Shown here one piece after another: positions 2,452-46,827 of a stretch of DNA of 64,000 nt. The translations under genes and the position numbers were made by a program. This DNA comes from Candidatus Magasanikiibacteriota bacterium (GTDB lineage: Bacteria; Patescibacteriota; Patescibacteriia; Magasanikbacterales; GWA2-37-8), in assembly GCA_016182085.1 (NCBI GenBank), contig JACOYB010000004.1, positions 4,250 through 68,249 on the forward strand. The letters are read 5' to 3'. Under the pieces are notes generated by a model that saw nothing but the letters and a program-made list of their open reading frames with translations, was not told where the DNA came from and did not search any database. The first letter of the stretch is position 1; each line of letters starts with the position of its first letter.

Positions 2452-5214
2452 ATGGATAAAATCTTACTCAAAATTACAGGCATGCACTGTGAGTCGTGCG
2501 AAAAAATAATCGGCATGGAGCTGTCGGAAATAGCCGGCGTCAGTAATGTTAAAATAAATTTTGCGGCCGGGTCCGGAGAATTAGAAGCCTCCACCGAAGT
2601 ATCAAATGAAGCGATTGTTCAGGCGATTGTGAAGGCCGGGAATCAGGGAGAGGTGGTAAGTCGTATTAAAGAGCAAACTTCCTCTGTTCCAAATACATTT
2701 GAGAAAAATATCGTTTCCGGCAATCAACCATTTAAAGTAAAGATTGAAGTGACTGTAGAACCGGAAGGCGCTGTTGTTGGGAGCTCGTCCGCATATATCC
2801 CTCGGCCTGCGACAGAAAAAATTTCTAATCAAACAGCCCCAGGTTCTGCCGTAAAAGAGAAAAAAGAAGAACAAGTGCAACTAGCTCTTACCGGCATGCA
2901 TTGCGCGTCGTGCGCGGGTTTGATTGAACGAGGCTTAAAAAAAGTGGCGGGTGTAAAGAGTGCTAATGTTAATTTTGCGGTTGAAAAAGCGCGGGTGGTG
3001 TTTGATAATTCAGTCGCATCGGTAGAGCAGCTTATTGGGGCGGTAGAAAAATCCGGTTACAAAGCGCGGCTGGCCGGCACCGGCAATCCCGAGGAAGAAA
3101 GATTGCAGCGAGAAAATGTTATCAAAAGATACTGGCAAAAGTTTTTCTGGGGGCTTATCCTTAGTTTGCCGATGCTGTATTTCATGCTTCTGGATTTCTT
3201 TTCGTTTCTACCCAGCAGAACATTTCTTTTGCCGTATATTGGTATCGTATCGCTTATTCTTACCATTCCCGTACAATTTATTATCGGCGCGGGATTTTAT
3301 AAAGGAATGTGGAGCAGTCTGCGAATGAAAACGTTTAACATGGATAGTTTGATTGCTATCGGTACAAGCACCGCGTTTTTCTACAGCTTGGCGCAATTTA
3401 TTAACTATGTTGCGCGTACCGGCAGCGTGGTTGGTTTAAATGGCGCGAAAATTCCCGAATTATATTTTGAAACCGCCGCTTTTTTGATTACTTTTGTTAT
3501 TCTGGGCAAGTGGCTGGAAGCAAAAACAAAAGGGCGAACATCAGATGCTATAAAAAAATTGATGGGGCTTCAGGCTAAAACCGCGCGCGTGATGAAAAAT
3601 GGCGTGGCTTTGGATGTACCCATTGAACAGGTTGTGGCCGGCGATACAATTGTCGTCCGCCCGGGTGAAAAAATTCCGGTAGATGGCGCGGTAAGCAAGG
3701 GGCAGTCCAGCGTGGATGAATCTATGATTACGGGTGAAAGTATTCCGGTGGAAAAAAATATTGGTGACATGGTGATTGGTGCGACTATAAATAAACATGG
3801 CAGCTTTGAATTTACGGCCACCAAAGTGGGAAGCGAAACTATGCTGGCGCAAATTATTCGGGTGGTTGAAGAAGCGCAAGGATCTAAAGCGCCGATTCAA
3901 GCGTTTGCCGATAAAATTTCCGCCTACTTTGTGCCAATTGTTATTGGTTTAGCGGTGCTTACATTTTTGGTTTGGTATTTTGCTCTTGGCGCCAGCCTTA
4001 CTTTCGCGTTAATGGCTTTTACTTCGGTTATCGTTATTGCTTGTCCTTGCGCTTTGGGACTAGCCACGCCAACAGCCATTATGGTTGGTACGGGCAAGGG
4101 CGCCGAACATGGCATTCTTATCAAAGGCGGTGAGCCGCTGGAAGCCGCCTGCAAAATTAAAGCCGTAGTATTTGATAAAACAGGCACACTCACCAAAGGT
4201 CAGCCGGAAGTTACTGATGTGGTAAGCGCCGGTCTGTCTGATGAAGAAGAAATAATTCGTATCACCGCCAGTCTGGAAAAACTTTCCGAGCATCCGCTCG
4301 CGGACGCGATTGTTAAATATGCTGAAGAAGAATCCGTGCCGCTTAGCGAGGTGGCCGGTTTTCGCGCTATTCCCGGTCATGGTGTTGAGGGTGTATTAAA
4401 TAGCGTTAAATATTATTTTGGTAACCGTAAATTAGTGACGGATGTGGTTGGTATTTCCACAGTTGTTCTGGAAAAAGTGGAGCGTAAAATTCGCAAACTA
4501 GAAGAGAGCGGCAAGACGGTAATGATTTTGGCTTCAACCCAAGAAATTTTGGGATTGGTAGCGGTGGCCGATACGATAAAAGAAACAACCGTAGATGCGG
4601 TGCGCGCCTTACAAGAACAACACATCGAAGTCTTTATGATTACCGGCGATAATCGCCGCACAGCCGAAGCCATTGCTCGCCAGGCCGGAATAAAAAATGT
4701 CTTGGCGGAAGTATTGCCGGAAGACAAAGCTAATGAAGTCAAAAAATTACAGGGAACAGGTATTAAAGTGGCGATGGTGGGCGATGGAATCAACGACGCG
4801 CCCGCGCTGGCGCAAGCGGATTTGGGTATTGCCATGGGAAGCGGCACAGATGTGGCTATGGAAACGGGCGGAATTGTTATTATTAAAAATGATCTGCGTG
4901 ATGTACTTACGGCTATTAAACTGAGCCGTGAAACTATGAATAAAATTAAACAGAACATGTTTTTTGCCTTGTTCTATAATGTTATTGGTATTCCTATTGC
5001 CGCGCGCGTGTTTGTCGGTATTGGCATAGTGTTAAAACCGGAGTTGGCGGGTTTGGCCATGGCGCTTAGTTCAATATCGGTAGTCTCCAATTCTTTATTC
5101 TTGCGCGGATTCAAACCGGGCAAGCGTAACTGGCTGTCTATGGCCGCGCCGATAGTGATGGGATTACTATTTACCGCCATATTCTTTGTCTTTGCCCGGC
5201 TTAGCCGAATGTAG
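2452..5214 (+). CDS. copA: Copper-translocating P1B-type ATPase with two N-terminal HMA domains
   Basis: Two MHCxSC HMA domains; TGES actuator motif, CPC in TM6 ([12 protein letters not shown]), [16 protein letters not shown]1B signatures. Start at ATG 2452 ([16 protein letters not shown]); the upstream 2332-2451 part of the ORF overlaps copZ in another frame. Confidence 0.92.
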
Positions 5215-24587: not shown

Positions 24588-24661
24588 GTCGGGGTAGTGG
24601 GACTTGAACCCACAATCCCCTGCTCCCAAAGCAGGTGCTCTAGCCAATTGAGCCATACCCC
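24588..24661 (-). tRNA. tRNA-Pro (anticodon TGG)
   Basis: Cloverleaf on reverse complement: CGGGGTA acceptor, D arm, anticodon loop tTTGGGa, T arm GTGGGTTCAAGTCCCAC. Confidence 0.85.
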
Positions 24662-24673
24662 GTTTATATTATC

Positions 24674-24746
24674 TCGTGCCGCGAGTCAGAGTCGAACTGA
24701 CCACGCCAGCCTCTTCAGGGCTGCGCTCTACCGATGAGCTATCGCG
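24674..24746 (-). tRNA. tRNA-Phe (anticodon GAA)
   Basis: Reverse complement GCCGCGATAGCTCATCGGTAGAGC..CTGAAGA..GGTCAGTTCGACTCTGAC..CGCGGCA folds as canonical tRNA. Confidence 0.85.
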
Positions 24747-24752
24747 GCTTAT

Positions 24753-24989
24753 TTATATCCTATTTTTTAAAAATCGTCTACCGAAACCAGTTTTGAAATA
24801 TTTTTCCCTGGCCAGTGCTTTATTTTTAGATAAACACGCTTCGTAATATACCAATTGAAGTGGTCGTCTAGCTAATGTGGCCGGCACATGTCCGTCACAG
24901 TGTTCTTTGAATCTAATCTTTAAATTTTCGCTATATCCAATGTAAAGTTTGCTATCTTTTAAGCTTTTTAATACATAAGTATAGTGCAT
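24753..24989 (-). CDS. GIY-YIG nuclease family protein (UPF0213-like, 79 aa) inserted between tRNA-Phe and tRNA-Ala
   Basis: MHYTYVLKSLKDSKLYIGYSENLKIRFKEH...RPLQLVYYEAC matches GIY-YIG motif; start at ATG 24989 (upstream part of the ORF is tRNA/repeat sequence). Confidence 0.7.
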   Translation of the reverse strand: MHYTYVLKSLKDSKLYIGYSENLKIRFKEHCDGHVPATLARRPLQLVYYEACLSKNKALAREKYFKTGFGRRFLKNRI

Positions 24990-25055
24990 ATTAATGTGGC
25001 TGCGCTCCCGCGCCCGCAACGCCTGAGCAAGCTCAAGCTTGCGATGGCGGGCGGG

Positions 25056-25077
25056 TACCGATGAGCTATCGCGGCTT
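25056..25077. repeat. 22-bp direct repeat duplicating the 5' end of tRNA-Phe plus 3 flanking nt; together with 24727-24748 it brackets the GIY-YIG gene
   Basis: TACCGATGAGCTATCGCGGCTT identical at both sites. Confidence 0.7.
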
Positions 25078-25080
25078 TTG

Positions 25081-25153
25081 TGGACCCTATCGGGCTCGAA
25101 CCGATCACCCCCGCGTTGCAAACGCGGTGCTCTACCAAATGAGCTAAGGGCCC
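25081..25153 (-). tRNA. tRNA-Ala (anticodon TGC)
   Basis: Reverse complement GGGCCCTTAGCTCATTTGGTAGAGC..TTTGCAA..GGTTCGAGCCC..AGGGTCCA; G3:U70 Ala identity pair present. Confidence 0.85.
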
Positions 25154-25190
25154 GTAACCAATTAAAAAAGTAAAAATATTCTATCAATAG

Positions 25191-25219
25191 TTAACAAAAA
25201 AGTCAACTGATGATATAAT
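25191..25219 (+). promoter_or_regulatory. Sigma70-like promoter TTAACA-17-TATAAT upstream of the MgtC-family gene
   Basis: Seen directly. Confidence 0.4.
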
Positions 25220-41688: not shown

Positions 41689-44600
41689 ATGCGCGGAGGG
41701 AAATTTCGTCTTTGTCGTGGCTCGGTCACGATTTTTTTGGTTTTTACTGTTGGTATCCTCGTGGCGGGAGTGCTGGCGGTAGTTTTGGTGTTGCGACCAA
41801 AAACATCGGTGCCGGACAAGGGTTTGCCAGGGATATCTAAAACAATGGGCGGATTTGTGAAGACGCCAATTGGCGCAGCTACGCCGTCAGTTAAATTGGA
41901 AAGCCGTGTGCTTGAATTGACACCGGCGACAACTAAAACATTTTTAACGGAATTGGCGCAATCTGATAAATCAACGCAGCATGTCTATGTCCGCTTGGCG
42001 CGGTATCCGCAACTGGTTGATCGGGATACGTTGGAAAAAGCCGGAGTGACGCTTCTGGATTTTCTCGGCCAGCGCGTGTATATGGCCGTTGTTTCTGGTA
42101 AATTCACGGTTGATGATTTGGGCAAACAGCCGCTGGTTGAGGCCTTGGCAAAGATTGAGGATGCCGATAAAGCTCATCAAGATATTTGGAAAGAGAGATT
42201 TTTTGTTTTTGTCGTTAAACCGGGAGAAGATGAAAATGAGCCGGAGATTAATTATGTGCAAAATTCCGACGGTACGTTGAATTTAACGGTAGAATTTTTT
42301 GCCGATGTGGCCGCATCAGTCGCGAGAAATATTTTACAGGACGCTGGCGGCGCTAGAAGCGCCATGGGGCGTGGGCTGTGGGAAGTGAAATCAGCGCCCG
42401 CCTCGGCTGTTCGTCGGTTGGCTGCTTACGATGCAGTGAAACGTGTTGATCCGGGTCCGGCGCCATTTATGGCGGACAACAATCGCAGCCGCGCCGCGCT
42501 TAATGTTGATACCGTGCAGAATTTCACCACGGCCACCAATGTTTTTGGCGGTTTGAGCGGTTTGGGCGTGCAAGCGATTATTTTTGAAAGCATGATGGAT
42601 GAAACGCATGATGATTTTAGTTTGCTTGATGCCGCTAATAATATTATCGGCAGTCGGGTTGCCCGCCATCAGCCATCGGCGCATGCTACTCATGGCAGTC
42701 ATGCTACGCATGTGGCGGGTATTGTCGGCGGCAACGGGTTTATGAGTACAAGCACTATTATTGTTCAATGTCCGGGGACACCGGCGGTCAGCGGCACCCC
42801 TTGGCTGTTCCGCGGCATGGCACCACAGGCCACGCTTCTTGATTATGCCAGTTGGGAACGGACGCCAGACGGCATTCTTGATGCGGTTGCTAATTTTGGC
42901 ACCGAGTTGTCCAATAATTCATACTCAATTACATATGACGGGGATTATAGCGCCGCTATGCAAATCAACGACCGGCTGATCCGCGGTTCGGCCGTTTCAT
43001 CAGGGGGCGTAGCAGTGCCAGGCCGATCGATGATGTTTTCGGCAGGTAATCATGGATCCTATACATATAACGGCGGCGAGCAGGTTGGCTATTTTGCTCT
43101 GACTAAACAAAATAAAAATGACACCATGGTGGGGAATTGGAATGCCTGTGGCGCTACGCTGGCCGGTGGCAACATTGGTACCAGTATGGGTCCTGCTTAT
43201 GACGGGCGTATCAAGCCGGATGTGGTTGCTTCGGGCAGCTATGTTATATCCACGCAAAGCAACAATAATGGTTACACCAACAAATCAGGAACCTCAATGG
43301 CTACTCCGGCAGTGACTGGCGTCAGCGCGCTAGTTCTACAACAATACGCCACGACTTATGGTGTCAATCTTGATGTGAATCCGCCGCGTCCTTCAACTAT
43401 TAAAGCAGTATTAGTTAATACCGCAACTGATATTGACTGGGCAACGGCCGCGCCCGCCGGCTATGTTTATCCGCCCGCCGGCGGTATAACTGGCTGCGCT
43501 CCCGGGCTTCTCAATAATCCGGCATTTTGCGTGGGTGACGGCCCGGTGGTTTTCTTTCCCGGTCCTGACTTTGCGACTGGTTGGGGCATGGTTAACGCCC
43601 AAGCCGCGGTGAATGCGGTGGCGGCGCAAACTTTATTTGAAGATCAGATCGATGTGACTGGACAATTCCGTGGCATACAGTTTAGCGTTGCTTCGGGTAC
43701 AACCAATATGCGCATGACGCTGGCCTGGGATGATGTGGAAGGCAGTCCCGCAATTCTCGATACGAGCCCGCACTTGGTTAATGATCTTGATCTTGAGCTG
43801 ACTGACCCGGCCGGAGTCGTGTTTTACCCTTGGCAGTTGAATCAAGCCATTGCTGATGTTGCGGGTGTGCCATTGCCTAATGAACAGCAATATCCTGGTA
43901 CCGGTATCGTAATTACCACTGCGTTGGCACCGACAGCCGCGCCTATTGACTGCGATGGCAGCGCTGCTGATCCGAATCCATGCATACCCCAGAACGACTA
44001 TCCGGGCACCATTCCGGTAGCGCCCGCCGGCCAGGGGCGTGATCACCTCAACAATGTCGAGCAAGTATTTGTCTCGGCGCCGGTTGCCGGCACGTGGAAC
44101 TTGCGCGTTACCGGCTTCCAGATCCCTGATCCGGCTAATCCCCAGCCATACTCCATCGCCGGTTTGTCGGCCGCCGGCAATGCCTGGCCTGACCTGACGC
44201 CGATTGGCGATGTAACTATTGATGAAGGCGCGACCATGATTATTCCAATTACCGCCGTTGATCCCGAAGGCACGCCAATCACGCTTACCGCCAGCGGTCT
44301 GCCACCGTTTGCCGCCTTTGCCGATTTGGGTGGTGGCGCCGGCACGCTTACTCTGACACCAAGTTGCACTGACACTGGCGTCTATCGCGGTCTGGCTATC
44401 ATTGCTACTGATGGCGGCGCGCCGATAAAATATGAAGGCCAATATATAACCATTACCGTTAATCCGGCCAACTGCGCTCCGGCTATTGATCCGGTTGCCG
44501 ATGTGACTATTACCGAAGGCGATACACTTGATGTGCCGGTGAGCGCTACCGATCCGGAAGGCGATGCGTTGGTTTTGGCCGCTCCTGATTTGCCGCCGTT

Positions 44601-46827
44601 TGCCGCCTTTGCGCCAACAGGTCCGGGTACCGGGGCAATAAATTTGGCGCCAAGTTGCAGTGATGCCGGTGTTTATGCAGACCGGACGATTACTGCCACC
44701 GATAGTGGCGCTCCACCCCAGACAATGACTGAACTCTTTACGATTACCGTCGACGATGATTTGGTTCCGGTGGCTAATGCCGGAGCGGACATCGTTACGT
44801 ACAGCGCCATGGCTACCGTACTCAACGGCGCCGCCAGTAGCGATCCGGAGGCCAAGCCATTGACCTATAGTTGGGCACAGACCGCGGGTACACCGGTGGT
44901 TCTGGCCGGCCTCGATACAGCCACGCCGAGCTTTACGGCACCAACGGTCGCCGCCAGCGAAACGCTTACCTTCACCGTAACCGTTACCGATTCGTGCGCG
45001 CAACCTGCCGCCGACACTGTCGTTGTGACTGTCCGTCCGCTCGTTGATGCTTCTATTATCCTCGATCGTTCCGGCAGTATGATGTGGCCTGTGCCGGCCG
45101 AGGGCGGCGGCACCATTACCAAGATGAACTCATTAAAAAATTCGGTCAATCTTTTCCTCTCGCTCTTTGTTAATGAACGCCCGGGCGCGCCTGATAAGCT
45201 CGGTATTGTTAAGTTTGCCGACAACACGGCGGCGGATACGCAAACAATCCGTCCGCTGGCCGATGTCGAACCGGCGGACATAGCGCCTGCCGGCGCCGTG
45301 AGCGCGCTGATTTCCGGTCTGACCACCGATGCGACCACGTGGATTCGCGGCGGTCTTAATCTTGGATTGGCGGAACTGTTCGGTCCGGCCGGAGTAGCCA
45401 GTCACAAAAAAGCGATGGTACTCTTCTCCGACGGCAAAGAAAATGAATCGCCTTTGACGCAGGATCCGCCGCCGGCGCCGGATGGGGTTTTAAGCGATCC
45501 TGATTTTATCAGTACGTCAGTATATGCGGTCGGCTTTGGCGTCGCTGGCGCGGCCGGCGATACCGGTATTGATGAGGCGCTCTTAACCACCATTCAAAAC
45601 GTCGGTGCCGCCGATGGTTTCGTCAATGTTACCGCCGAGCCGTTGGCGCTTACCAAGTTCTTTGTTGAGGCGTTGGCCACCATGTTCGATCAAACCATAT
45701 CGCTTGATCCGGTGACCACGTTATCCGGAGCCGGGTCATCGTTCCAGTCGGCTACCATCAGTAGCGCCGATCGCCAGGCCACGTTCGTGCTTACTTGGAA
45801 TCAGCCGCAGACCGATGCGCTCGACCTTAAACTGCGTACGCCCGAAGGTGAACTGATTACTACCGCCGACGCCGCGCCGGGAACACCGATTGAATATGTG
45901 AGTGGCGCGACGTTCAAGTACTTTATCGTGCGTTTTCCGCTTACCGGTCGTTTGCGCGGCATTCACGCCGGCACTTGGCAGATGGAAGTCAGTCGCAATC
46001 AGGCGCCCGCCAATCAGCTGGCGACCTTTGCCACGGCGGTCATGGTAGATAGTCCTAGTTTGCGCTGGATGCCTTCAATACCATCATCTATGCTGTTTAC
46101 CGGGGATGAATTCGGCATCCGGACATCGCTGCTTGAAAACGGCAAGCCGATTGCCAATGCCAAAGTGTTTGCCGACATTGAACGCCCAATAGTCAACCCG
46201 CATCAGGTTGTGGTCACGGCCAAGCTCGATCCGCGCCAAGCGTATATTCCATCTGTTCTCAAAACCGATCCGCCGTCGCCGTATGACCAGAAATTGCTTC
46301 AGATTATTAAAAACGCCCGCGGTAAAAATCCATTTCCTGTGAGCAAGGAGCGGGTGCAACTCTTTGATGACGGTAAGCATAATGATGGCAAAGCGAACGA
46401 TGGCACGTATGGCGCCAATCTAACTAAAACCAATGTTGGCGGTGTCTACCGCATTCATCTGCGCGCCCAAGGTAAAAGTTCGCAGTACGGGGCATTTACC
46501 CGTGAGTCCAGCCGGAGTATTACCGCTATCATCAAAGCTAGTCCCAAGGCATCGAATGTTACCATTGCGCCGATTACCAAAGCTTCAGCCCGTGGGACCA
46601 TATACCAATTGACGGTGACACCGAAAGACAGCCAAGGAAACATAGTTGGCGCTGGCTATGCTAGTATGGTTAAAGTAAGTGGCGCCGATATCAAGCCGAT
46701 TGAAGCGGTAGAAGACAAGACCAATGGCAGTTACACACTGCGTTTTACGGCCGACCCGCGGGCCATTCTGACTGTCCGGTTTGGTGATGAGAAGCTTGCC
46801 AGTATGGTAGTTGAAAAATCTCAATAG
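41689..46827 (+). CDS. Giant (1712 aa) secreted subtilisin-like serine protease (S8) with cadherin-like/Ig-like repeats and a von Willebrand factor A domain
   Basis: Signal/TM; HGSHATHVAGIVGG (His) and GTSMATPAVTG (Ser) motifs; three ~90-aa repeats (DPEGTPITLTASGLPPFAAF..); VDASIILDRSGSM vWA MIDAS motif. Confidence 0.85.
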   Translation: MRGGKFRLCRGSVTIFLVFTVGILVAGVLAVVLVLRPKTSVPDKGLPGISKTMGGFVKTPIGAATPSVKLESRVLELTPATTKTFLTELAQSDKSTQHVYVRLARYPQLVDRDTLEKAGVTLLDFLGQRVYMAVVSGKFTVDDLGKQPLVEALAKIEDADKAHQDIWKERFFVFVVKPGEDENEPEINYVQNSDGTLNLTVEFFADVAASVARNILQDAGGARSAMGRGLWEVKSAPASAVRRLAAYDAVKRVDPGPAPFMADNNRSRAALNVDTVQNFTTATNVFGGLSGLGVQAIIFESMMDETHDDFSLLDAANNIIGSRVARHQPSAHATHGSHATHVAGIVGGNGFMSTSTIIVQCPGTPAVSGTPWLFRGMAPQATLLDYASWERTPDGILDAVANFGTELSNNSYSITYDGDYSAAMQINDRLIRGSAVSSGGVAVPGRSMMFSAGNHGSYTYNGGEQVGYFALTKQNKNDTMVGNWNACGATLAGGNIGTSMGPAYDGRIKPDVVASGSYVISTQSNNNGYTNKSGTSMATPAVTGVSALVLQQYATTYGVNLDVNPPRPSTIKAVLVNTATDIDWATAAPAGYVYPPAGGITGCAPGLLNNPAFCVGDGPVVFFPGPDFATGWGMVNAQAAVNAVAAQTLFEDQIDVTGQFRGIQFSVASGTTNMRMTLAWDDVEGSPAILDTSPHLVNDLDLELTDPAGVVFYPWQLNQAIADVAGVPLPNEQQYPGTGIVITTALAPTAAPIDCDGSAADPNPCIPQNDYPGTIPVAPAGQGRDHLNNVEQVFVSAPVAGTWNLRVTGFQIPDPANPQPYSIAGLSAAGNAWPDLTPIGDVTIDEGATMIIPITAVDPEGTPITLTASGLPPFAAFADLGGGAGTLTLTPSCTDTGVYRGLAIIATDGGAPIKYEGQYITITVNPANCAPAIDPVADVTITEGDTLDVPVSATDPEGDALVLAAPDLPPFAAFAPTGPGTGAINLAPSCSDAGVYADRTITATDSGAPPQTMTELFTITVDDDLVPVANAGADIVTYSAMATVLNGAASSDPEAKPLTYSWAQTAGTPVVLAGLDTATPSFTAPTVAASETLTFTVTVTDSCAQPAADTVVVTVRPLVDASIILDRSGSMMWPVPAEGGGTITKMNSLKNSVNLFLSLFVNERPGAPDKLGIVKFADNTAADTQTIRPLADVEPADIAPAGAVSALISGLTTDATTWIRGGLNLGLAELFGPAGVASHKKAMVLFSDGKENESPLTQDPPPAPDGVLSDPDFISTSVYAVGFGVAGAAGDTGIDEALLTTIQNVGAADGFVNVTAEPLALTKFFVEALATMFDQTISLDPVTTLSGAGSSFQSATISSADRQATFVLTWNQPQTDALDLKLRTPEGELITTADAAPGTPIEYVSGATFKYFIVRFPLTGRLRGIHAGTWQMEVSRNQAPANQLATFATAVMVDSPSLRWMPSIPSSMLFTGDEFGIRTSLLENGKPIANAKVFADIERPIVNPHQVVVTAKLDPRQAYIPSVLKTDPPSPYDQKLLQIIKNARGKNPFPVSKERVQLFDDGKHNDGKANDGTYGANLTKTNVGGVYRIHLRAQGKSSQYGAFTRESSRSITAIIKASPKASNVTIAPITKASARGTIYQLTVTPKDSQGNIVGAGYASMVKVSGADIKPIEAVEDKTNGSYTLRFTADPRAILTVRFGDEKLASMVVEKSQ

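Follow-up and report, generated by a model that had tools for sequence, protein, structure and literature searches.

What is a very small nuclease gene doing inside a transfer RNA (tRNA) operon, wedged between a broken and an intact copy of the same tRNA? The question is posed by a 64,000-nucleotide (nt) stretch of a Candidatus Magasanikiibacteriota genome (contig JACOYB010000004.1, positions 4,250 to 68,249; hereafter the window, meaning this whole stretch), in which a GIY-YIG nuclease gene lies on the minus strand between tRNA-Ala and tRNA-Phe. An earlier note on this DNA had described the locus as a small, homing-endonuclease-type mobile insertion that regenerated the tRNA 5' end. Our best reading is that the cassette is a widespread selfish element of Patescibacteria, or Candidate Phyla Radiation (CPR), with two conserved parts: the GIY-YIG gene and a GC-rich palindrome. 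We consider it probable, though by no means certain, that this nuclease-plus-palindrome element is mobile, that it invades the 5' ends of conserved genes and persists there together with a duplication that leaves an intact gene copy, and that it is transcribed from the promoters of its hosts.

Results

A palindrome-split tRNA-Phe stub precedes the nuclease gene

Both ARAGORN and Rfam place three tRNAs (Pro, Phe and Ala) on the minus strand at the cassette locus. Read along the minus strand, the order is promoter, tRNA-Ala, caaaa, left arm of a tRNA-Phe stub, palindrome, right arm of the stub, linker, GIY-YIG gene, ATAA, tRNA-Phe and tRNA-Pro (Table 1). The nuclease gene is indeed flanked by identical 22-mers, as the earlier note had claimed, and the ARAGORN and Rfam coordinates place one of these at the 5' end of tRNA-Phe: an exact count of TACCGATGAGCTATCGCGGCTT gives two copies and no more (24729-24750 and 25056-25077), while shuffled sequences are expected to contain none, even with three mismatches allowed. 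It is the extent of the duplication that needs revision. The 5' end of tRNA-Phe is repeated over 30 nt rather than 22, as a stub that is split 20|10 by the palindrome, resumes in register on its far side and matches the intact tRNA at 30 of 30 positions. The palindrome had previously been placed after the second repeat and treated as a side feature; instead, it sits inside the stub at 25008-25055, between nt 20 and nt 21, where it marks the exact insertion point, and it is the best conserved part of the element (see below).

The inserted DNA amounts to approximately 330 base pairs (bp), and its sole open reading frame (ORF) encodes the GIY-YIG protein, which is 78 amino acids (aa) long and not 79. 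Between tRNA-Ala and the nuclease gene we found no promoter-like or terminator-like site, and the TTGACT/TAGAAT site, judged by its match to the consensus, likely drives an Ala-(cassette)-Phe-Pro transcription unit. An Rfam scan of the window returned no match besides the three tRNAs, and no group I intron model matched in the tRNA. In an independent assembly of the same strain (Logan SRR12113430, locus L091) the tRNA-Ala / caaaa / stub / palindrome junction is identical up to the point where the contig stops, inside the palindrome; since the same junction was recovered independently, an assembly artefact is unlikely. Mechanical ORF calling also yields a 144-aa ORF with a TTG start (24753-25187, minus strand), which runs from within tRNA-Ala via the stub and the palindrome into the nuclease gene.

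Table 1. Features of the cassette locus, listed in minus-strand order with window coordinates.
Feature	Position	Strand	Remarks
Promoter-like site TTGACT-17 nt-TAGAAT, TG-extended	25178..25206	-	10/12 consensus matches; consensus match only; ~24 nt upstream of tRNA-Ala
tRNA-Ala (TGC), upstream neighbour	25080..25153	-	ARAGORN; Rfam, 63 bits
tRNA-Phe stub, left arm: AA + tRNA-Phe nt 1-20, GCCGCGATAGCTCATCGGTA	25056..25077	-	Second copy of the 22-mer
GC-rich imperfect palindrome 'H', 48 nt, CCCGCCCGCC...GCAAGC-TTGA-GCTTGC...GCGGGCGCGG	25008..25055		Breaks the stub's D-loop at nt 20|21
tRNA-Phe stub, right arm: tRNA-Phe nt 21-30, GAGCGCAGCC	24998..25007	-	Continues the left arm in register; the anticodon stem marks its end
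AT-rich 8-nt linker ACATTAAT, stub to start codon	24990..24997	-	Without a clear Shine-Dalgarno sequence
Stand-alone GIY-YIG nuclease gene, 78 aa (MHYTYVLKS...FLKNRI)	24753..24989, stop included	-	ATG at 24989; stop codon 24753-24755
4-nt spacer ATAA, stop codon to intact tRNA	24749..24752	-	Final two bases are part of the 22-mer repeat
Intact tRNA-Phe (GAA)	24676..24748	-	ARAGORN; Rfam, 60.4 bits; nt 1-30 duplicated in the stub
tRNA-Pro (TGG), last gene of the cluster	24588..24662	-	ARAGORN, Rfam

Relatives carry both occupied and empty versions of the cluster

We compared the tRNA clusters of relatives for presence and absence of the insertion, as the earlier note had advised. In locus L085, where the neighbouring MgtC protein is 72% identical and tRNA-Ala is identical, the order is MgtC / tRNA-Ala / 21 nt / tRNA-Phe / 28 nt / tRNA-Pro, and the tRNA cluster contains no nuclease ORF, palindrome or stub. 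Loci L081-L084 of a second relative, in contrast, encode a nuclease that is 83% identical to that of the window, in an ORF that follows tRNA-Ala directly and without a palindrome; the stop codon is followed by a 14-nt fragment of the tRNA-Phe 5' end, a native-looking leader, and a tRNA-Phe with one mismatch in the acceptor stem. Since L085 is empty while the window and L081-L084 are occupied, the region is polymorphic, and the nuclease gene is not a universal, repeat-free fixture of this position. An exact search of metagenome contigs with the 30-nt tRNA-Phe pattern, aimed at occupied and empty sites in close strains, gave no match. Looking up exact matches to the MgtC protein beside the cluster led to a single short contig, from the same strain, which confirmed the junction and showed no empty allele.

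The same neighbourhoods hold genes of another kind. In L081 a 122-aa 23S_rRNA_IVP gene (3396-3764; PF05635, four-helix bundle) lies between tRNA-Phe and tRNA-Pro, flanked by imperfect inverted repeats, and in L047 (~2850-2915) and L075 (~640-720) a GIY-YIG gene directly follows, or breaks, the 3' end of putative IVP-like genes, a label that here refers only to the C-terminal ..EIGK(L/M)LGG.. sequence. The 23S_rRNA_IVP gene may be a second small mobile gene in the same niches.

A large nuclease family sits in front of tRNA genes

The family to which the nuclease belongs comprises 527 loci in one-genome-per-species contigs, 1,430 proteins in a word-indexed search and 3,381 clusters at 50% identity (E <= 1e-10). 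We fetched and examined 80 loci, the best 80 of the 527, and all counts below refer to these. In 59 of the 80, no more than 130 nt separate the stop codon from the start of a downstream tRNA on the same strand (no more than 25 nt in 44), with 20 anticodons represented; from ordinary bacterial tRNA gene numbers, chance adjacency is estimated at well below 1% of loci. Loci for which ARAGORN made no call include three tRNAs with a group I intron, one transfer-messenger RNA (tmRNA) and two tRNAs cut by a contig end, with others alike by eye. No ribosomal RNA (rRNA) gene match was found in the window or in the 18 loci without a tRNA. As the earlier note had it, an intact tRNA 5' end directly follows the nuclease gene, and this arrangement recurs at 20 tRNA anticodons.

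Proteins that are ~70% identical to one another are found at varied insertion positions in 20 tRNA species, tmRNA, epimerase genes and a MazE-like gene. Given that one conserved protein sits at so many different sites, the choice of target is unlikely to be made by the protein. When the protein tree was set against tRNA species, clustering was only partial, and the tree of 78 residues was poorly resolved.

Several cassette-targeted tRNAs carry a group I intron in the anticodon loop (L016, 3265-3499; L035, 3268-3480; L055, 3264-3504; L011 and L073 by eye). These introns are separate from the cassette, and two kinds of selfish element thus occupy one tRNA gene. In L017 ARAGORN reports a 'tRNA-Stop (tta)' at 3267-3340, the anticodon loop of which reads CTTTTAA by eye; most likely, a tRNA-Lys (TTT) was called here in a shifted register. 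Many of the metagenome-assembled genomes (MAGs) with a cassette (L002, L008-L010, L012 and others) are titled 'uncultured Gammaproteobacteria', 'Bdellovibrionales' or 'Methanosarcinaceae', and these non-CPR labels look unreliable or look to mark binning contamination.

The palindrome is conserved, present in either orientation and inserted in register

Across the family the palindrome is GC-rich, imperfect and 35-60 bp long, with arms CCCGCCCGC / GCGGGCGGG and the inner stem GCAAGC/GCTTGC. It lies within 130 nt of the nuclease gene in 70 of the 80 loci (upstream in 54, downstream in 22). In the ~400 kb of related loci nearly all palindrome copies are likewise within 130 nt of a GIY-YIG gene, and the 64-kb window holds a single copy, beside the nuclease gene. 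Two palindromes from epimerase hosts closely resemble that of the window: the L067 copy shares 92% identity with it, and the L015 copy, taken as its reverse complement, 96%. The ORFs, in contrast, are only ~72% identical at the DNA level. By these alignments across unrelated host genes, the palindrome is the most conserved DNA of the element. It occurs in both orientations: 15 copies are oriented like that of the window, 19 are opposite and 32 are too symmetric to call. In L015 and L067, which come from the same MAG, the palindromes are near-identical but inverted (96% as reverse complements). Orientation showed no link with either junction type or tRNA type.

The fold of the palindrome is not unusually stable for its composition (z = -0.9 versus shuffles), and its significance thus rests on conservation across loci rather than on energy. 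The sense strand folds better in 21 of 75 palindromes and the antisense strand in 46 (p = 0.002). Because the sense strand folds no better than the antisense strand, a purely sense-RNA role is disfavoured, and we no longer take RNA structure on the sense strand to be the chief explanation for the palindrome.

At 34 loci a copied 5' end of the downstream tRNA is interrupted by the palindrome in register, the flanks together matching that tRNA exactly and contiguously over at least 13 nt (30 in the window). The split point varies from nt 6 to nt 22 and falls at a loop or helix boundary in 31 of the 34, compared with ~57% expected. In these loci the tRNA copy stops 4-13 nt past the palindrome, and no bases are duplicated at the palindrome, nor are they in the MazE-like gene of L045. 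The distance from the palindrome core to the ATG has a median of ~20 nt. The duplicated segment often takes in the tRNA leader too, as far as the stop codon of the ORF. No ORF-only stage, that is, a stub without a hairpin, was seen among the examined loci. A target consensus could not be upheld: approximately two-thirds of the junctions abut TA, a preference inseparable from the TA dinucleotides that are normal in tRNA loops.

Two further loci contain other nucleases with other hairpins. In L069 (1031-1370) a different mini GIY-YIG gene (MCYVYILCNEE...) precedes tRNA-Lys and has its own tRNA-Lys stub, split in the D-loop by another small hairpin, ccccgattaaatcgggg; with both nuclease and hairpin being different, the stub-hairpin-nuclease design extends beyond one protein and hairpin family. 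In L023 (276-1000), next to a divergent GIY-YIG gene (36% identical), GC-rich hairpins unlike the main palindrome break the T-loop or T-stem of tRNA-Lys remnants.

The nuclease is a bare catalytic domain under purifying selection

That the gene encodes a GIY-YIG protein is upheld by the PF01541 profile, which matches residues 1-70 of 78 with 55.8 bits (cut-off 22.6; E 5.9e-15). The protein consists of the GIY-YIG catalytic domain alone, without a DNA-binding domain in Pfam, and it scores 20 bits against the group-I-intron endonuclease model TIGR01453, far under the cut-off of 56. A protein annotation from a Candidatus Magasanikbacteria MAG matches it at 100% identity. Across 32 homologues from several CPR lineages (mean column identity 77%), Y5, Y16, G18, R26, H30 and E62 are invariant, and by analogy with I-TevI we take these to be the catalytic residues of the superfamily (the Tyr of GIY, the Tyr and Gly of YIG, an Arg, a His and the metal-binding Glu). 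A structure model built with the 32-homologue alignment (mean predicted local distance difference test score, pLDDT, 95.4) has strands at residues 2-9, 15-20 and 44-52 plus helices, that is, the GIY-YIG fold. By profile, the nearest PDB entries are the UPF0213 proteins BH0048 (1zg2, E 3.1e-8) and EF2693 (1ywl, E 1.7e-6), which are distant, at ~30% identity. By fold, BH0048 (1zg2) and Slx1 are nearest (template-modelling, TM, score ~0.7; root-mean-square deviation 2.3 A), ahead of I-TevI and the N-terminal domain of UvrC. The nuclease would appear to be too small to read long DNA sequences in its many targets.

Purifying selection is strong: the ratio of nonsynonymous to synonymous substitution rates (dN/dS) is ~0.06-0.15, and between the window and L081 dN is 0.08 and dS is 1.32. 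Many homologues in databases are 100-130 aa long with the match beginning at residue 25-50, and their N-terminal extensions are probably false. In L015, however, reading from the ATG of the stub across the palindrome leads into the nuclease in frame.

Protein-coding hosts, rearranged copies and the probable ends of the element

Five loci (L015, L067, L031, L054 and L061) share one insertion site in NAD-dependent epimerase genes, within the GxGxxG-coding motif (GGATTTA|TCGGTTC). Upstream there is a 5' stub with the start codon, downstream the intact gene (PF01370, 2.6e-64), and in L031, L054 and L061 the ORF is located between two palindrome arms. Stub and intact copy are identical in L054, just as they are in the window; in L015, L031 and L061 they differ, by inspection mostly at third codon positions, and look like different functional alleles. 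In L001 and L076 the acceptor stems of stub and intact copy have diverged. The clearest case is L045, where an arm-ORF-arm unit splits a small gene and its removal in silico restores a MazE/AbrB-type ORF (PF04014, 1e-7). L045 is direct evidence that a discrete unit was inserted, one that has palindromic ends and did not duplicate its target.

Other loci are rearranged. A tandem array in L025 consists of three internally deleted copies, in which the ATG is joined to the last six codons (FLKNKI plus stop), and one full gene. L010 carries two units: their ORFs are saturated at synonymous sites, yet their 70-nt stub-plus-palindrome modules do not differ at all, a pattern of concerted evolution at the palindrome. 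The stub-palindrome module flanks the gene on both sides in L019, L020, L029 and L060, the right arm mismatches the adjacent tRNA-His in L021, and at some tRNA-Lys loci it is the palindrome that separates the ORF from the tRNA. A contig ends within 350 nt of the gene in 15 of the 80 loci.

Whole tRNAs can be enclosed as well. In L076 (~2900-3460) a complete tRNA-Val stands between perfect 17-bp arms (CCCGCCCACCTTTGGGC / GCCCAAAGGTGGGCGGG), with the 5' and 3' remnants of an older tRNA-Val on either side, and it looks like a replacement tRNA borne by the element. In L048 (~4490-4700) one tRNA-Thr encloses another, complete tRNA-Thr in its anticodon loop (35|36), accompanied by palindrome-like arms and a single palindrome; the two tRNA-Thr copies have no nuclease gene between them. 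Finally, 3'-side versions exist in L078 (3480-3900) and L062 (3360-3700), where a related, more divergent GIY-YIG gene stands between the tRNA and, after the gene, a second copy of that tRNA's 3' part. The repeat in L078 includes ~41 nt of the downstream terminator region, and in L062 the anticodon loop of the 3' remnant is split by a palindrome.

Discussion

How the element could enter and persist

In the reading that we favour, the palindrome arms would act as the ends of the element. The cassette would have entered the 5' part of tRNA-Phe within an Ala-Phe-Pro operon, leaving the interrupted piece as a dead stub, while the complete tRNA-Phe, 4 nt past the nuclease stop codon, would let the cell retain its tRNA. 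Lacking a promoter of its own, the nuclease gene would be transcribed from the promoter of the tRNA operon and its message freed by the ribonuclease (RNase) P cut at the tRNA. The nuclease probably acts on the palindrome, as a hairpin or cruciform, or on branched recombination intermediates, rather than on the tRNA sequence. Repair of the resulting breaks by recombination with homologous copies of conserved genes would then copy the cassette in a homing-like manner, and the same repair could give rise to local gene conversion, tandem arrays, homogenised palindrome modules and flipped palindromes. As the element is presumably not spliceable, insertions in essential genes would survive only if a partial duplication of the 5' end left one copy of the gene intact, and the co-occurrence of stub, palindrome, nuclease and intact gene would follow from the survival of only such insertions.

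Several points weigh against this reading. There is one empty site only, in the fairly distant relative L085, which may reflect loss rather than gain; the window contains just one cassette copy, and with a dS of ~1.3 from its closest relative, L081, this copy may be old, vertically inherited and no longer mobile. Among 2.9 million viral contigs we found one family member only, a count on which phage was rejected as the vector and which leaves horizontal spread without one. What the nuclease cuts is purely our inference, and a nuclease that targeted the uninterrupted tRNA would also cut the intact tRNA-Phe of its host, which is identical to the stub. The palindrome could act as RNA. The architecture is also uneven, in that the stub ends only 4-13 nt past the palindrome and the ORF can follow the stub or sit within the palindrome, being outside at tRNA hosts and inside at some protein hosts. 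Campbell-type integration by single crossover of a circle with the arms, ends-in recombination following a cut within the palindrome, template switching while a break is repaired and staggered nicks that would yield a long duplication were considered as mechanistic schemes, and none fits all loci.

An unlikely alternative: a homing endonuclease that reads its target

The account closest to that of the earlier note is a sequence-specific homing endonuclease that cuts the uninterrupted tRNA-Phe or the Ala/Phe junction, whereupon the cassette and a replacement 5' end are copied in, the palindrome being incidental. We regard this as unlikely, even though the GIY-YIG catalytic domain and the presence/absence pattern between relatives agree with it. 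At three epimerase loci the codons of the intact copy at the insertion site differ from those of the stub, which is readable as an immune allele, but in the window and at most tRNA loci the intact copy equals the stub and is hence not immune. Since an intact tRNA that is identical to the stub over 30 nt adjoins the gene, the usual logic, whereby insertion destroys the recognition site, fails here. Moreover, a 78-aa protein with no DNA-binding domain and a sub-threshold TIGR01453 score is a poor candidate for site recognition, its ~70% identical relatives occupy a wide variety of unrelated sites, and a palindrome present at 70 of 80 loci is difficult to treat as incidental. Of the homing-endonuclease-type insertion proposed previously, the insertion itself is supported, with L085 as the empty counterpart, while the sequence-reading enzyme gives way to a catalytic domain alone.

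Precedents for homing exist on both counts. T4 SegB is a GIY-YIG homing enzyme encoded by a free-standing gene in a tRNA cluster, and it is thought to spread through break repair that co-converts flanking tRNA DNA (PMC2330249). The cassette resembles it in being a free-standing GIY-YIG gene, outside any intron, inside a tRNA gene cluster. Seg proteins, however, are phage-borne, ~200 aa or more in length and equipped with a site-reading DNA-binding domain, and they are not known to come with a palindrome or a duplicated tRNA stub, whereas the protein of the cassette has 78 aa, is chromosomally encoded in CPR bacteria and has many different targets. Fungal mitochondrial mORFs (in Allomyces atp6 and in Glomus atp6, atp9, cox2 and nad3) are endonuclease ORFs that bring a replacement gene end with them (PMC3630166). 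There, too, the ORF lies between the remnant of a displaced gene end and a functional copy, and the apparently mostly synonymous differences between the copies in L015, L031 and L061 may be a further likeness. The cassette differs in duplicating the 5' rather than the 3' end, in being bacterial with mostly tRNA hosts, in having the catalytic domain only, in the conserved palindrome that interrupts its remnant and in the identity of the two copies in the window.

The palindrome as a possible mobile unit

Alternatively, the palindrome itself might be the true mobile unit, comparable to a miniature inverted-repeat transposable element (MITE) or an intervening-sequence hairpin that inserts into the loops of structured RNAs, with the GIY-YIG protein as passenger or trans-acting helper. 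Insertion in register without target duplication and the flips in orientation would suit such a unit, as would palindromes that are nested in one another (L026, L077) or stand alone in tRNA remnants (L005, L017, L048), and so would the cargo found between the arms, be it an ORF (L031, L045, L054, L061) or a whole tRNA (L048, L076). On the other hand, the palindrome shows no independent dispersal: the 64-kb window has one, adjoining the nuclease gene, and the copies in the related loci keep almost without exception to the vicinity of a GIY-YIG gene. This account overlaps with the nuclease-plus-palindrome element that we favour, and as a separate explanation we find it doubtful.

In support of a hairpin that targets structured RNAs, rRNA genes of CPR bacteria contain non-intron insertions that encode GIY-YIG proteins and lie either at the top or at the base of stem-loops (PMC11270868). 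By that description, bacterial group, structured-RNA hosts and placement at stem-loop edges are shared with the cassette, 31 of 34 of our insertions being at loop or helix boundaries; those insertions, however, lie inside rRNA genes that tolerate fragmentation, and the design of a stub plus an intact tRNA is not described there. A conserved palindrome in cis, the lack of target duplication and two roughly equal orientations are also reminiscent of IS200/IS605 elements, REP/RAYT systems and the flip/flop palindromes of parvoviruses. This resemblance to hairpin-dependent elements and parvovirus palindromes is offered as a lead. IS200/IS605 and REP/RAYT employ HUH (Y1) enzymes with covalent intermediates, whereas the only ORF of the cassette is GIY-YIG, and we know of no GIY-YIG hydrolase shown to form covalent intermediates as HUH enzymes do.

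A housekeeping nuclease, and other less likely explanations

It is also rather improbable, in our estimation, that the protein is a housekeeping or domesticated nuclease co-transcribed with tRNAs, with the palindrome serving as an RNA hairpin (an RNase III site or a stabiliser of messenger RNA ends, akin to the stems found in rRNA intervening sequences) and the stubs arising as by-products of local duplication. Strong purifying selection, the position of the gene inside a tRNA operon without its own promoter, and the apparent age of the window copy (dS ~1.3 versus L081) all accord with a cellular role; the palindrome, with its core a median of ~20 nt before the ATG or else between ORF and tRNA, is suitably placed, and a hairpin would function in both orientations. 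Such a role is harder to reconcile with patchy presence, the empty site in L085, hosts that vary and include protein-coding genes, the clean disruptive insertion in the MazE-like gene, and the tandem arrays, internally deleted forms and genomes with more than one copy. Nor does the palindrome behave as a hairpin selected in RNA: of 75 palindromes, 21 fold better as the sense strand and 46 as the antisense strand, and palindromes lie in register inside dead gene fragments, some of them far from ORFs (L017, L048).

The duplication of an attachment site by an integrase-type island, or a chimeric assembly, is highly improbable: although direct repeats of part of a tRNA around foreign DNA, with the tRNA regenerated, are a hallmark of tRNA-integrating islands and prophages, and although several contigs break at or near the palindrome, islands use a tyrosine or serine integrase and the tRNA 3' end, whereas the cassette has ~330 bp with a single 78-aa ORF, no integrase and a palindrome-split duplicate of the 5' end, and its junction is repeated in an independent assembly and its architecture in dozens of unrelated MAGs.

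A possible guide function of the stub

Among the ways in which the nuclease-plus-palindrome element could find its targets, one that we put forward as a long shot is that the stub acts as a guide. A strand or transcript consisting of left arm, palindrome and right arm would pair with the uninterrupted gene, and the resulting three-way junction would be cut by the Slx1-like nuclease. It is similarly a speculative proposal that the branch point would be the insertion site, with the nuclease bound to the palindrome and the guide arms copied from whatever host gene is invaded, so that the element would be a minimal, nucleic-acid-targeted nuclease able to reprogramme itself. Such a guide would explain how a conserved 78-aa protein comes to sit at dozens of unrelated sites, as well as the in-register palindrome, the retained right arm of 4-13 nt and the homogenised modules.

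In sequence, fold and possession of a single small catalytic domain, the nuclease is akin to UPF0213/YhbQ (COG2827) and Slx1. Slx1 is a structure-specific nuclease for branched DNA that needs a RING domain and Slx4. UPF0213, to our knowledge, has no assigned function or genomic partner, and we know of no link between UPF0213 or Slx1 and a palindrome or tRNA stubs.

Novelty and significance

Full-text literature searches returned no description of a UPF0213/Slx1-like, free-standing mini-nuclease combined with a conserved, either-orientation palindrome, a split 5' stub and an intact gene, with a strong preference for tRNAs in Patescibacteria. A survey of tRNA introns in Patescibacteria makes no mention of GIY-YIG or of tRNA stubs (PMC13011429). 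The parts are known singly, and what appears to be new, by these searches, is their combination.

If the favoured reading is true, a very small element routinely enters, duplicates and replaces the tRNA genes of CPR bacteria and some of their protein genes. This would explain the stray tRNA fragments, nested tRNAs and contig breaks beside tRNAs in CPR genomes, along with thousands of annotations as 'GIY-YIG nuclease family protein', many with false N-terminal extensions. Proteins of the UPF0213/YhbQ type gain a concrete candidate partner, the conserved palindrome, and a testable activity. At ~330 bp, the cassette further offers a minimal model for the survival of an unspliceable element in an essential gene, and if its targets prove to be chosen through homology or a guide, and not through reading by the protein, it would be of interest for genome engineering.

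Other features of the sequences

Two features lie apart from the cassette. In the window, positions 42001-46000 contain no Rfam RNA gene and have a GC content of 0.52-0.58, compared with ~0.43 elsewhere in the window. In L055, a LOOT RNA (RF03000, 69.7 bits) is encoded on the minus strand at 4991-5119, ~1.7 kb from the cassette.

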